In this document: positions 7,651 to 12,545 of the stretch, in pieces
How positions within the stretch are numbered: position 1 is the first letter of the stretch
Layout of the letters: each line of letters opens with the position of its first letter
Origin: Candidatus Wolfebacteria bacterium
GTDB lineage: Bacteria; Patescibacteriota; Minisyncoccia; Phycocordibacterales; EsbW-18
DNA: 64,000 nucleotides
Assembly (NCBI GenBank): GCA_022616195.1
Contig: JAKEFG010000015.1
Span: 9,354 to 73,353 of the forward strand
Direction of reading: 5' to 3'
Position numbers and translations under genes: made by a program
Notes under the pieces: model-generated
Databases searched by the model: none
The model's input: the letters and a program-made list of their open reading frames with translations, nothing else
Told to the model about the DNA's origin: nothing

Positions 7651-9636
7651 AGACGGAACGGAAAACACGATGGGCTGACTGGACGTTGACAAGCAAATAC
7701 ACGATAGAGAATCAAAGTCTCCGCTGACACGCGATGCGTACAGGCGGAGCAAGCAGGTAATTAAGTAAGGTATCAATGCTTGACATTGATACGCGGTTTT
7801 TAGATTTCCTAATAGGAGATCTGATAAGGGCGCACGGTGGATGCCTTGGCTCTAAACGGCGATGAAGGACGCGGCATGGCGGCGATATGCTTCGGGGAGG
7901 TGCCTAGCAACCTACGATCCGGAGATTTCCGAATGGGGAAACCCTGCGAGGTCAACCCTCGTGATCCTCTGATTCATCAGAGGAGGCACACCCGGGGAAG
8001 TGAAACATCTCAGTACCCGGAGGAACAGAGACTAATAAGTATTTCCTGAGTAGCGGCGAGCGAAATGGAAGAAGCCCAAACTCTGTGAAGCGAAAGCTAT
8101 GCAGAGGGTAGTAGGGTAACAACGTCATCTTTGATGAGGAGAGTTATAAAATGTTCTTCGTTAGCTGAATTCGTTGGAAAGCGAAGCCCGAGAGGGTAAT
8201 AGCCCCGTAATGCGAAAACGGAATGTCTCTCTTGTTGTTATTCCTGAGTACCCCGAGACATGAATAGCTCGGGGGAATCTGCCGGTACTAACCGGTAAGG
8301 CTAAATACGTTTAGAGACCGATAGTGAACCAGTACCGTGAGGGAAAGGTGAAAAGTACCCCGGAGAGGGGGGTGAAATAGACCTGAAACCGTGCGTCTAC
8401 AAGGAGTCGAAGTGTCTTTTGGCACAACGGCGTGCCTATTGAAGAATGAGCCAACGAGTGTACGTGTACTGCTCGGCTAAGTCCTTTGTCGGACGAAGCC
8501 ACAGGGAAACCGAGTGTTAACAGCGCGAACTATAACTTTTTGCCGTGCGTGTGTTTCCTAGGACGCATGGTAAAGAGTTATCTGTAGTACATGTACGACC
8601 CGAAGCCGGGTGATCTACCCATGACCAGGGTGAACCTTACCGAAAGGTGGGGGGAGGCCCGAACCGATACGCGGTACAAAACGTTCGGATGAGTTGTGGG
8701 TCGGAGTGAAAAGCTAATCGAACCCGGTAATAGCTGGTTCTCTCCGAAATAGCTTTAGGGCTAGCGTTATGTGTTTCCCTCGGGGGTAGAGCACTGGAAG
8801 GAGTAGACAGGGCGAAAGCTCGCTTCTCCTATCAAACTCCGAATACCGAGGGTTAGAGCATAGCAGTTAGACTATGGGCGCTAAGGTCCATTGGTCAAAA
8901 GGGAAACAGCCCAGACCTCAAGCTAAGGTCCCTAAATCGACACTAAGTGCACGTAAGGAGGTGCAATTTCTCTGACACTGAGGAGGTTGGCTTAGAAGCA
9001 GCCATCCTTTAAAGAAAGCGTAACAGCTCACTCACTTAGAGATTGTGCGCCGCAAATAATCGGGGCTAAGTGTCGTACCGACGCTGAGGATTGTATCCCG
9101 TTTCGACGGGGTGCAGTGGTAGGAGAGCATTTCTATTGCTATGAAGCCCCTGTGTAAACCGGGGTGGAGCGATGGGAAGAGAGAATGTTGGCACAAGTAA
9201 CCGCAAGGCAGGTGCGATCCCTGCCCGCCGAAATCCCAAGGTTTCCTTGGCAATGTCAATCAGCCAAGGGTTAGTCGGTCCTAAGGAGATGGCGAAAGCC
9301 GTATCCGATGGACACACGGTTAATATTCCGTGACTTCCTGTTCATTCGATGGAGTAACGGAGGGTTGTACACGTTGCACATTATTGGATTTGTGTGCATG
9401 CTTTGAGGGAGTCAGTTAGGCAAATCCGGCTGACGCCACCCCGAGAAGTGTGCGGAATTCCGCTACGGCGGGAGAACAACGTGGAGCACGCTCCCGAGAA
9501 AAACTTCTAAGGTTCATGTCCAGGAAACCGTACCGCAAACCGACACAGGTGGGAAGGTCGAGAAGACCAAGGCGAACGGGTGAGAGATCCTCAAGGAACT
9601 CGGCAAAAAAGCGGCCGTAAGTTCGCAATAAGGCCT

Positions 9637-10028
9637 CCCAGCACTAGATTAAGTTCTTAAATGTAAACAGTAAGGAGAAAAAGCATGACAAATGAGCAGT
9701 ACCTAAAGGCAATCGGTGAAATGAAAAAAATAATACCGGCAGAAATTTTACCGGAGAGGATTGACACAAGCCGTAAATTCTCTGAAACTTCTGTAGAACA
9801 GAAGTTAAAACATTCTCTATATTTGTTAGAGAATGTCCCGACTTTTCTCGAGGTAGGAAAACGAGAAAAATCATCAAGACATTTAGCTTTTGCTCAGGCA
9901 ATCCTTTGGTCTTTGGACATGTTGGCAATCGACCAATTAATGGATTTCAACAGAAGATGATCATAATCGGGTGGTGATGATTATTTTTCACGCTCCCCGA
10001 ATTTTTAAGAATTTAATCTAGTGCTGGG
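9637..10028 (+). other. IVS-like insertion in a variable 23S helix (approx. E. coli helix 63 region), closed by a ~25-bp stem with one G-U; ~340 nt inserted
   Basis: cccagcactagattaagttcttaaa ... tttaagaatttaatctagtgctggg are reverse complements; flanking sequence continues into GACTGTTTACCAAAAACACAG (E. coli ~1770-1785). Confidence 0.65.
9685..9960 (+). CDS. 91-aa protein encoded inside the 23S IVS-like insertion (hypothetical, all-helical)
   Basis: ATG preceded by TAAGGAG 7 nt upstream; terminator-like hairpin plus T-run after the stop (~9955-9990). Confidence 0.55.
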   Translation: MTNEQYLKAIGEMKKIIPAEILPERIDTSRKFSETSVEQKLKHSLYLLENVPTFLEVGKREKSSRHLAFAQAILWSLDMLAIDQLMDFNRR

Positions 10029-10883
10029 CGCAGCGAAAGTATCCCTGGCGACTGTTTACCAAAAACACAGCTCCCTGCGAACTCGTAAGAGGATGTATAG
10101 GGGGTGACGCCTGACCAATGCCAGAAGGTCAAACGCGGAGGGTACATGTGACTTCGGTTATATGTGCTGGACTGCGTAAGCCCTGGTGAATGTCGGCCGT
10201 AACTATAACGGTCCTAAGGTAGCGCAATTCCTTGTCTGGTAAGTTCAGACGTGCACGAATGGCGTAACGACTGGGGAACTGTCTCGAGGATTCGCCCGGT
10301 GAAAATGCAATGGGGGTGAAGATGCCCTCTACCTGCAGTTAGACGAAAAGACCCCAGGAGCTTTACTGTAACTTGATAGTGGGGGTACGTAGTATATGCG
10401 TAGCATAGGTGGGAGACGTTGAAGCGAAGGTCTCGGCTTTCGTAGAGTCGCCAGTGAAATACCACTCTTATATAGCGTGCTTTCTAACCTCGACGGCAAA
10501 AACGGCGGGGGACAGTATCTGGTAGGCAGTTTTAGTGGGGCGCTATCCTCCTAAAAAGTAACGGAGGAGCCTATTACGGTCAGCTAGGCGCGAATGGAAA
10601 CCGTGCCGATAGTGTAATGGCAGAAGCTGGCCTGACTGCAAGGGGTACATCCCGAGCAGGCGCGAAAGCGGAGCATAGTGAACCGAGAGTTCCCTTTAGA
10701 CGGGGCTCGAGATTAACGGATAAAAGTTACCCTGGGGATAACAGGCTGGTCCTGCCTAAGAGTCCATATCGACGGCAGGGTTCGGCACCTCGATGTCGGC
10801 TCACCGTATCCTGGCGCTGGAGAAGGTGCCAAGGGTTTGGCTGTTCGCCAATTAAAACGGTACGCGAGCTGGGTTCAGACCGT

Positions 10884-11360
10884 TCTGGGCATGAATCATA
10901 AGATATGAATCATGAATAGAGCAGTCTGAATCCGCTCATAACGACACAATCGTTTTTTCGTCTATGAAATAAGTCCCGATTTTGATGTATCAAAATCGAG
11001 GATCCCGACCAGAGCGTCGGGAATAGAATCAACCTAATCACGGCGGTCATGTGTAGTAATACGCATGTATCAAGCTGACCCCGATTTTGATGTATCAAAT
11101 CGAGGATCCCGACCAGAGCGTCGGGACTAATATCGGTGAATTTCTAGCTTCTAGGTAAGAAGAAGGAGGACACCGAGGGAATGGTTCGACTTTGCTCACC
11201 ACGAGCAAATAGAATTCGGCCCGTAGAGACTGAACGTCAGCGTTCCTTACTCATGTTTTGTGTTATACGCGACATGTGTTGGGAATATGCTACAGTCCGA
11301 TCCCGCCGGTAACGGCGGTGTGGCTAGACGCTAGGAGCTAGCGGCTAGTTGCTACAGTTG
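10884..11360 (+). mobile_element. ORF-less group-I-like intron inserted exactly after U2593 (E. coli numbering) of 23S
   Basis: exon reads GGGUUCAGACCGU | CGUGAGACAGG, matching E. coli G2581-U2593 | C2594-G2603; 5' exon ends in U and insert ends in G, as for group I introns; longest ORF <65 aa. Confidence 0.6.
10975..11126 (+). repeat. two direct copies (10975-11022 and 11080-11126) of a 48-bp element, each made of two hairpins (cgattttgat-gta-atcaaaatcg and tcccgac-cagagc-gtcggga), separated by 57 nt, inside the L2593 intron
   Basis: copies identical except one A in the A-run. Confidence 0.85.
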
Positions 11361-11423
11361 CGTGAGACAGGTTGGTCTCCTATCTACTGCAGGCGTTGAT
11401 TCTTGAGGGGAGCTGCTCCTAGT

Positions 11424-12251
11424 AAGTAATTGCTACTCTTCGGAGAGATCCGAAGTGACAATGTGGCTTATAACGGTGAAGCCTTCATATGATTACTGTC
11501 CGAGGATTGTGAATAGCTATTGGTCCAGCTATGGTATAATTCGCTTGCGGACCGTAATCCGCTGCAAGGTAATACCGTGGGAAGTCGATCTCAAACACAC
11601 ACAGCGTATATAGCGGGTTTTCTTGATGGTGACGGCAGTTTGATGCTGCAGATCAAAAAACGATCTGATACAAAACGAGGTATTCGTTTTATGGCAACAA
11701 TCTGTCTGTATCAAGATACTCGCCATGAGAGGCCGCTGTGCTGGATGCGTGAAGTTTTAGGCATTGGATATCTATCTCGACGCCGTGACGGCATTACAGA
11801 GTTACGTATCAATGGCTTTAGTCAGTGCAAAACAATTCTTGAACAACTAGTACCGTATATACGGTTTAAGAAGGTTCAAGTGAGTGCATTGCTCGAGGCA
11901 TGTACGGTACTGTGTACGACGCCGTTTTCAAAGCTCACGAAACAACAGCAGAAGTATTTGGTTGACCGTATTGTGATCATTCAACATGAAAACTATACAA
12001 CCAAGTCAAAAAAGCGTAGGGAAGAGCTGTATGCATGTTTGGATTTGACCCCGTAACGACTTGTTCATGTAGTTGCCACTACATGGCGGACTTGCTGATG
12101 TATTGAATCAGGAATGTATTCCTGACAATCTCAGTGGGTAACATGCCGCCACCCTCGTCCTCCATCTCATGGGGAACGGGTGAAGATATAGTCTATGCTC
12201 CTGGAAACAGGGGAGTAATCTTGTTTTTCAAAAGTGAAACAAGAGATACAT
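11424..12251 (+). mobile_element. 828-nt intron in the sarcin-ricin loop of 23S (after U2656), carrying a LAGLIDADG homing-endonuclease gene
   Basis: flanking exons join to GCUGCUCCUAGU|ACGAGAGGACCGGAGUGGAC, identical to the E. coli SRL sequence; 5' exon ends U and insert ends G. Confidence 0.75.
11520..12056 (+). CDS. single-motif LAGLIDADG homing endonuclease, I-CreI-like
   Basis: YIAGFLDGDGS motif; ~170 aa; GIGYLSRRRDG and LEQLVPYIRFKKVQVSALLEAC segments parallel I-CreI GVGYVRDRGS / FLTQLQPFLKLKQKQANLVLKII; ORF-track start is TTG 11520; in-frame GTG 11577 lies after a perfect TGgTATAAT (11531-11539). Confidence 0.85.
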   Translation: MVQLWYNSLADRNPLQGNTVGSRSQTHTAYIAGFLDGDGSLMLQIKKRSDTKRGIRFMATICLYQDTRHERPLCWMREVLGIGYLSRRRDGITELRINGFSQCKTILEQLVPYIRFKKVQVSALLEACTVLCTTPFSKLTKQQQKYLVDRIVIIQHENYTTKSKKRREELYACLDLTP

Positions 12252-12545
12252 GACGAGAGGACCGGAGTGGACTGACCGCTGGTGTACGAGCTGTCCTGCC
12301 AAGGGCATCGCTCGGTAGCTATGTCGGGACGGGATAACTTCTGAAAGCATCTAAGAAGGAAGCCCACCCCAAGATTAGGAATCATTAAGACCCGTGAGAG
12401 ATGATCACGTTGATAGGCACCAGGTGGAAGCACAGTAATGTGTTGAGCCGAGGTGTACTAATTCGTCGAGTATCTCCTATTAGGGAATCTGAAAATCGCT
12501 TAGTTCCTGCTTTTCTATCGTGTAGGCGACTGACTTTAAGTGTTG

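Follow-up and report, generated by a model that had tools for sequence, protein, structure and literature searches.

The 23S ribosomal RNA (rRNA) gene in a 64,000-nucleotide (nt) stretch of a Candidatus Wolfebacteria contig (JAKEFG010000015.1, positions 9,354 to 73,353; hereafter the window) is interrupted by three large insertions. We consider it very probable that this 23S-5S unit carries two group I introns, located after U2593 and U2656 (E. coli positions), together with an element in helix 63 that resembles an intervening sequence (IVS), and that all three are removable from the transcript. This reading was built on the insertion sites, on homology, on covarying ribozyme helices, on the family of the encoded endonuclease and, for the helix-63 element, on its closing stem and on a cargo of foreign composition. 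The main features are the following:

7814-12469, + strand: 23S rRNA gene (Rfam RF02541), with about 2958 nt of exon and 1698 nt of large insertions
9637-10028, + strand: stem-closed insertion of 392 nt replacing helix 63 (E. coli ~1707-1752)
10884-11360, + strand: intron 1, predicted group I intron of 477 nt without an open reading frame (ORF), after U2593, placed by E. coli mapping and homologue alignment
11361-11423, + strand: 63-nt exon between introns 1 and 2, equivalent to E. coli 2594-2656 in the alignment
11424-12252, + strand: intron 2, predicted group I intron of 829 nt with an ORF, after U2656 in the sarcin-ricin loop
12549-12654, + strand: 5S rRNA gene (Rfam RF00001, 74.4 bits)

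An earlier note on this DNA had described a 23S gene at 7815-12475 with all of its conserved core blocks present but spread over about 4.66 kb. The gene is there, conservation of its exons is complete and extends to the peptidyl-transferase region and the sarcin-ricin loop, and the Rfam large-subunit (LSU) model was matched throughout; only the limits were refined, to 7814-12469. The alignment with E. coli 23S rRNA was made after cutting out both putative introns (68% identity), since MAFFT misplaced the 3′ third of the gene when they were kept. The E. coli 23S copy that served as reference lacks one base relative to the canonical numbering, and positions are given canonically. In this mapping, U2593 corresponds to 10883, C2594 to 11361, U2656 to 11423 and A2657 to 12253, and the short exon spans E. 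coli 2594-2656 just as noted earlier. The note had also called for a covariance-model alignment of the locus to the LSU model. When 10500-12469 was aligned in this way, 480 and 837 unaligned bases fell exactly at the two 3′ insertion sites, in domains V and VI, i.e., where the two breaks had been claimed. In an Rfam scan of the full window, the LSU match ended at 10965 yet spanned model positions 1-2925, whereas sub-range searches gave an end at 12469; because introns interrupt the gene, the former end is an alignment artefact. Annotation pipelines can mis-set the end of such a 23S gene, and an automated call would here cut about 1.5 kb off it.

That the breaks are assembly chimeras is an explanation to which we give practically no credence: we found no point in its support, the boundaries are base-exact and restore the universal rRNA sequence, and over 40 independent assemblies have homologous insertions at these sites. 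The assembly artefact that the earlier note had itself considered was thereby checked, and with the same three sites filled in dozens of independent assemblies the breaks are genuine. The nearest 23S gene among the fetched loci was that of a Candidatus Kaiserbacteria genome (83.7% identity), and the locus is the 23S-5S unit of a bacterium of the Patescibacteria (candidate phyla radiation, CPR).

Intron 2 lies inside the sarcin-ricin loop, and the following elements of a group I ribozyme were assigned to it:

11420-11425/11430-11435: P1
11463-11467/12145-12149: P3
12150-12154/12178-12182: P8
12183-12193: J8/7-P7′, AAGAUAUAGUC
12197-12215: P9, with a GAAA loop

Covariation was analyzed with RNAalifold on 37 homologues from which the ORF had been removed. 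P3, a long-range pairing that bridges the ORF, showed compensatory changes in 3 of its 5 pairs, and such changes were also observed in P2 (5 of 8 pairs), P8 (3 of 5) and P9 (3 of 6), while an extra covarying helix was found between P7 and P3′. P7 itself was invariant and therefore not tested by covariation. The conserved GAAGAUAUAGUC matches the J8/7-P7 consensus of Rfam. At the 5′ end, U11423 of the 5′ exon pairs with G11432 within a 6-bp P1; at the 3′ end, a terminal G was present in 43 of 43 homologues. Flanking As permit a slide of 1 nt, and the limits 11424-12252 were favoured because a U precedes the intron and a G ends it; hence the site and the start given in the earlier note stood, whereas its end at 12251 was corrected to 12252. 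Taken together, its conserved and covarying elements identify intron 2 as a group I intron, and the locus offers a clean, base-resolved case of an essential rRNA gene with an intron inside the sarcin-ricin loop.

The ORF of intron 2 encodes a protein of the LAGLIDADG type:

11577-12056, + strand: predicted single-motif LAGLIDADG homing endonuclease gene, 159 amino acids (aa) from GTG 11577, with the frame open to TTG 11520 (178 aa)

GTG 11577 is the likely start, since the 2513 homologues retrieved were mostly 159-160 aa long. The protein matched Pfam PF00961 (LAGLIDADG_1) with 40.1 bits (cut-off 23.1, E 7.5e-10) and contains one GFLDGDGS motif, invariant across the family alignment; among the matches listed, no database protein was more than 69% identical to it. 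Its nearest solved structures are those of its sequence relatives I-MsoI, I-CvuI and I-CreI. The match to PF00961 and this kinship sustain the earlier claim that the sarcin-ricin-loop intron carries a homing endonuclease, which we predict to be I-CreI-like and of the homodimer type. As read from the sequence, the outer arms of the DNA target TCCTAGT/ACGAGAGGA are palindromic, which would fit a homodimer. I-ShaI, a CPR enzyme of another rRNA site, was shown both to cleave its intron-less target and to dimerize (PMC11270868).

Endonuclease relatives in species-representative genomes numbered 319, and the best 80 of these 319 loci carried Patescibacteria-type labels except for one Gammaproteobacteria bin and a few entries labelled only 'bacterium', in line with the attribution of the locus to the CPR made before. 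In 43 loci, taken from the assemblies of three homologues and from 80 named-genome loci, the LAGLIDADG gene was located inside an insertion of 761-1040 nt at exactly the U2656 site. The Gammaproteobacteria-labelled bin (L016) and many TPA loci labelled 'uncultured Candidatus Saccharibacteria' carry this Paceibacteria-type intron and endonuclease. Saccharibacteria rRNA genes have been reported to be without introns or endonuclease genes (PMC11270868), and the Saccharibacteria and Gammaproteobacteria labels, or the binning, of such loci may be unreliable.

Intron 1, which has no ORF, was aligned with 17 homologous ORF-less introns from relatives, and the following elements were located in it:

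11074-11079/11236-11241: P3, GCUGAC/GUCAGC
11133-11138/11171-11176: P4
11228-11232/11293-11297: P7
11242-11248/11280-11286: P8
11303-11318: P9
10975-11022 and 11080-11126, + strand: copies 1 and 2 of a 48-nt two-hairpin module, as direct repeats

All six pairs of P3 varied, five of them with compensatory changes. Four pairs of P7 were invariant and the remaining one switched between G-C and A-U, and P4, P8 and P9 were likewise backed by counts of pairs with compensatory changes. A terminal G was present in 25 of 25 homologues, and homologues of this intron in two relatives (L018, 67.6 bits; L053, 66.5 bits) scored above the Rfam cut-off for group I introns. The interpretation of the break at 10884-11360 as an L2593 intron was thus upheld: its limits after U2593 are exact by E. 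coli mapping, its core helices covary and, on sequence grounds, it is a group I intron. The hairpins of its duplicated module are CGAUUUUGAU..AUCAAAAUCG and CCCGAC..GUCGGG. Copy 2 lies between P3 and J3/4, a place where none of the 17 aligned homologues has anything, and no further copy of the module was found anywhere in the window. A similar CCCGAC..GUCGGG hairpin pair occurs in the upstream region of another locus (L083).

The third insertion differs from both introns in its structure. Its two defining features are:

9637-9661/10004-10028: closing stem of the helix-63 insert, 25 bp with one G.U pair (inverted repeat, 96% complementary)
9685-9960, + strand: ORF of 91 aa (ORF91), with TAAGGAG at 9671-9677, 7 nt upstream of the ATG

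The predicted fold of the insert had an energy of −127.6 kcal/mol (z = −8.5). No Rfam family matched it at E <= 0.1, and a group I or group II intron was ruled out, as no Rfam signature of either was found. Its GC content was 37%, compared to 52-53% in the rRNA exons and 49-54% in the host genes. The tip of a variable helix is replaced, a long duplex closes the insert and an intron core is missing, which are the structural marks of an IVS; by analogy, the element is most likely IVS-like and of the RNase III type. The limits set by the 25-nt inverted repeat, and the ORF that encodes a conserved protein (see below), agree with the earlier description of the break at 9637-10028 as a stem-closed insertion with an ORF in a variable helix.

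In 19 of 43 relatives, helix 63 is no more than a hairpin of 5-6 bp; the other 24 have stem-closed expansions of +20 to about +360 nt, and three of the largest inserts (L009, L015 and L077) encode GIY-YIG ORFs. A metagenome scan with the degenerate CCAGCNNTAGATTNAGTNCT yielded, among the matches listed, only two real helix-63 elements (L103 and L109), both with GIY-YIG; the rest were nearly all chance matches, and the scan gives no measure of how rare ORF91 is in rRNA. Parcubacteria GW2011_GWA1_40_21 carries a 425-nt stem-closed helix-63 insert (L047, 2833-3257) with a different ORF of 67 aa (MAKFLLKMSGTDQNGK...), which is preceded by an AAAGGAG site, gave no Pfam match and may be a further sign of variable cargo at helix 63. 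Three other relatives (L057, L041 and L027) have ORF-less helix-63 expansions composed of short repeated CGCAGA or GCAGAA-type motifs in long stems. A modestly new view that emerges is that of helix 63 as an insertion hot spot, occupied by stem-closed elements whose cargo is interchangeable.

An exhaustive HMMER search with ORF91 gave 60 full-length homologues at E <= 1e-3, and 2091 were obtained with a profile, whereas a word-index protein search gave no homologue. The family shares the motif H..YM..I..F..GK.EKA.RWLGF.QG.LW....L..NRP, and ORF91 retains all of its near-invariant residues (H43, K62, R65, L67, Q71 and N89). AlphaFold2 modelled the protein as four helices (pLDDT 97). Neither ORF91 nor its family had a match in Pfam; phrog_7775, a phage family annotated as of unknown function, matched 49 of 57 family members. 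Two candidate identities were rejected: an S23p/IVP protein, given that PF05635 did not match, and a GIY-YIG nuclease. Elsewhere, family members are free-standing chromosomal genes (in CPR genomes and in one Hyphomicrobium record) or reside in a few jumbo phages, and one Paceibacterota gene (P0182) is a tandem duplication. A tblastn search of phage records with ORF91 itself gave no match; with another family member it retrieved 10 phage records, in all of which the gene was unannotated or a 'hypothetical protein', among them Klebsiella and Serratia jumbo phages of about 300 kb and two uncultured phages of 735 kb. None of 83 related 23S loci contained a family member. Judging from this conservation, ORF91 is a real gene for a conserved protein. 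Of about 33 long host ORFs whose start regions were checked, most had no Shine-Dalgarno-like motif upstream, and ORF91 has a perfect TAAGGAG, so that ORF91 and the host genes may be translated differently. Because of its low GC content and of a ribosome-binding site that is rare in host genes, the ORF91 cargo looks horizontally acquired.

Other readings of the helix-63 element have to be weighed against an IVS-like spacer. It might stay in mature 23S rRNA as a surface expansion segment, comparable to ES27L, with an ORF that is incidental or silent. Helix 63 does vary in size among relatives, with 24 of 43 enlarged by 20 to 360 nt and many of these without an ORF, and eukaryotic ES27L arises from this same helix. 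However, the near-invariant residues kept by ORF91 and its strong ribosome-binding site point to use as mRNA, a duplex of 25 bp is what RNase III typically cleaves, and CPR rRNA insertions were reported to be absent from transcripts by Brown et al., as cited in PMC11270868. We therefore judge retention in the ribosome to be improbable.

A somewhat better, though still tentative, candidate is an origin as the immobile remnant of a mobile GIY-YIG-type element whose nuclease gene was swapped for other cargo. The GIY-YIG ORFs in stem-closed helix-63 inserts of L009, L015, L077, L103 and L109, the resemblance between a stem arm of L009 (CCAGCCGTAGATTCAGTCCT) and the window arm CCAGCACTAGATTAAGTTCT, and the foreign composition of the window cargo all speak for it. 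Nevertheless, the interior of the window insert has no DNA similarity to the GIY-YIG inserts, and the likeness of the arms may mirror the kinship of the host rRNAs alone. Such an origin is compatible with removal by RNase III and competes with our reading on descent, not on processing. In relatives, GIY-YIG nucleases or other ORFs are found at this rRNA position. In a bolder proposal, the helix-63 element would be a cargo-swapping cassette that expresses foreign genes through rRNA transcription, the excised RNA serving as mRNA for ORF91. We regard this proposal as doubtful; if it is true and ORF91 is expressed from the excised spacer, a mobile gene would be profiting from the cell's strongest promoter.

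For the IVS-like reading with two group I introns, we infer that the introns are spliced, that intron 2 spreads by homing, that RNase III cleaves the helix-63 element and that ORF91 is translated. Both introns would splice by the usual two transesterifications, which would restore the universal GACCGU/CGUGAGACAG at the junction of intron 1 and CUAGU/ACGAGAGGACC at that of intron 2. The endonuclease would cut intron-less sarcin-ricin-loop DNA, at a predicted target that includes GGAGCTGCTCCTAGTACGAGAGGACCGGAGT, and would thereby spread intron 2 by homing. Finally, RNase III would cut out the 392-nt helix-63 element without religation, leaving the 23S rRNA in two pieces.

The surroundings of the gene contain candidate signals for its expression and processing:

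7474-7501, + strand: sigma-70-like promoter candidate of the 23S-5S genes (TTGACT, 16-nt spacer, TATACT), located 340 nt before the start of the 23S gene
7790-7820, + strand: 5′ arm of the putative 23S processing stem, pairing with 12472-12502 (inverted repeat, 31 nt, 87% complementary)
7698-7714/12508-12524: second 23S-flanking stem (inverted repeat, 17 nt, 88% complementary)
12536-12556/12646-12666: 5S-flanking stem (inverted repeat)
12679-12694: terminator-like hairpin 3′ of the 5S gene (terminator scan)

An Rfam scan of the whole 64-kb window gave no match to small-subunit (SSU) rRNA, the only tRNA gene of the window is that of tRNA-Asn at 36507, and none of 11 related loci had an SSU gene in the ~400-2700 nt searched upstream of the 23S gene. 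The 23S-5S genes are a transcription unit separate from the 16S gene, as had been proposed from the absence of a 16S gene or tRNA spacer. The element at 7474-7501, also pointed out before, was the best consensus match in 7300-12800 (10 of 12 positions), and 7 of 10 relatives have a TTGAC(A/T)-N16-18-TAnnnT site at a similar distance, 236-416 nt before the 23S gene; the unit is probably driven by its own promoter there. Between this candidate and the 23S gene, a terminator-like hairpin with a T-run was found at 7582-7598. The leader also holds a 16-bp hairpin (~7612-7653) and two copies of the motif GTCTCCGC (7579-7586 and 7718-7725). The hairpins of 7560-7760 could represent the terminator of mltG followed by leader or antitermination structures. 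The inverted repeats around the 23S and 5S genes were read as putative processing stems because of their position.

Some smaller features of the locus were also recorded. Compared to E. coli, the 23S gene has expansions of 61 nt after ~277 (8086-8146) and of 52 nt after ~651-668 (8528-8596), and E. coli 2778-2795 (18 nt) are missing near window position 12374; these two expansions and the gap are ordinary lineage-specific differences in rRNA size. The tRNA-Asn (GTT) gene at 36507-36579 is uninterrupted. In Patescibacteria, genes for tRNA-Asn and tRNA-Asp are reported to contain group I introns (PMC13011429).

Several points weigh against the reading of two introns and an IVS-like element in a unit with its own promoter. 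The scores of introns 1 and 2 with the Rfam model Intron_gpI (RF00028) were only 19.7 and 21.3 bits, below the 50-bit cut-off, and the low values coincide with the 47-nt insertion in the core of the former and with the ORF and extra helices of the latter. This insertion, unique to intron 1, might impair its self-splicing. Intron 1 moreover has two candidates for the guide strand of P1: GCGGU at 11043-11047, which forms 5 bp with the 5′ exon, places a U.G pair at the splice site and directly precedes P2, and GCAGUCUGAA at 10921-10930, which is conserved and forms 9 of 10 pairs with the exon, with an A as splice-site partner in 14 of 17 homologues and the exon invariant. Classical IVS sites are helices 9, 25 and 45, and helix 63 is not among them. 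With regard to the promoter candidate, the number of promoter-like matches in the region is no more than expected by chance.

The low Rfam scores, the 47-nt insertion and the missing ORF of intron 1 would also suit a different explanation, in which one or both introns have decayed or need host or protein factors, or in which the gene is a non-functional rRNA copy. On the other hand, the exons are fully conserved and the core helices of the window copies are all intact. Since a single rRNA copy is usual in CPR genomes (PMC11270868), the window 23S must function, and we see no more than a slim chance for decay.

In their analysis of 348 CPR 23S genes, Tsurumaki et al. 2024 (PMC11270868) found insertions of at least 100 bp in 82% of the genes, with up to 16 per gene, in agreement with the earlier remark that multiple rRNA insertions typify these lineages. 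Group I introns made up 45% of the insertions, LAGLIDADG_1 genes were concentrated at positions 1917, 1931, 1952, 2593, 2604 and 2657, GIY-YIG genes sat in non-intron insertions (15 cases), and some non-intron insertions were suggested to be IVSs of the RNase III type (PMC11270868). The combination in the window had been called notable, with three different types of element; neither judgement held. Only two types are present, as two of the insertions are group I introns and the third is IVS-like, and positions 2593 and 2657 are already frequent sites (PMC11270868). The relatives compared had all been selected by their possession of the U2656 intron. Of 62 such loci, 45 also have 200 nt or more inserted at 2593, and in 12 of the 38 measurable at both other sites, all three are occupied. 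The three insertions are thus one more case of a catalogued feature of CPR rRNA and carry little weight alone.

The closest counterparts of the introns are 23IS12 (2593) and 23IS14 (2657) of CPR 23S genes (PMC11270868), which share their positions, a group-I-like structure and a single-domain LAGLIDADG_1 protein in a setting where multiple insertions are the norm; unlike 23IS12, the window intron at 2593 lost, or never had, its ORF and carries the duplicated 48-nt hairpin module. The L2593 introns of the cyanobacteria Synechococcus and Thermosynechococcus (PMC1995217) lie at the same site after U2593 as intron 1. The cyanobacterial intron has helices of the P7.1/P7.2 type (PMC1995217), and intron 2 of the window has its extra helix between P7 and P3′. 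The intron of the window at L2593 is ORF-less and its I-CreI-like enzyme sits at 2656, with the sarcin-ricin loop as predicted target, in contrast to the introns of I-CreI and I-MsoI. These latter are chloroplast group I introns at the same L2593 site. RNase III-processed IVSs are present in the 23S rRNA of Salmonella, Leptospira and Coxiella, often with an S23p (PF05635) ORF. The helix-63 element resembles them in its long stem at the tip of a variable helix, the lack of a ribozyme core and a small ORF for a helical protein; it differs from them in its site, in an ORF that is not PF05635 and in an excision that is only predicted. With the GIY-YIG non-intron insertions of CPR relatives (L009, L015 and L077) it shares the helix-63 site, the stem closure and a size of ~350-390 nt, whereas its cargo encodes no nuclease but a 91-aa member of an unannotated family. 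This compositionally foreign ORF91, from a large unannotated family, is the only modestly new item at the locus.

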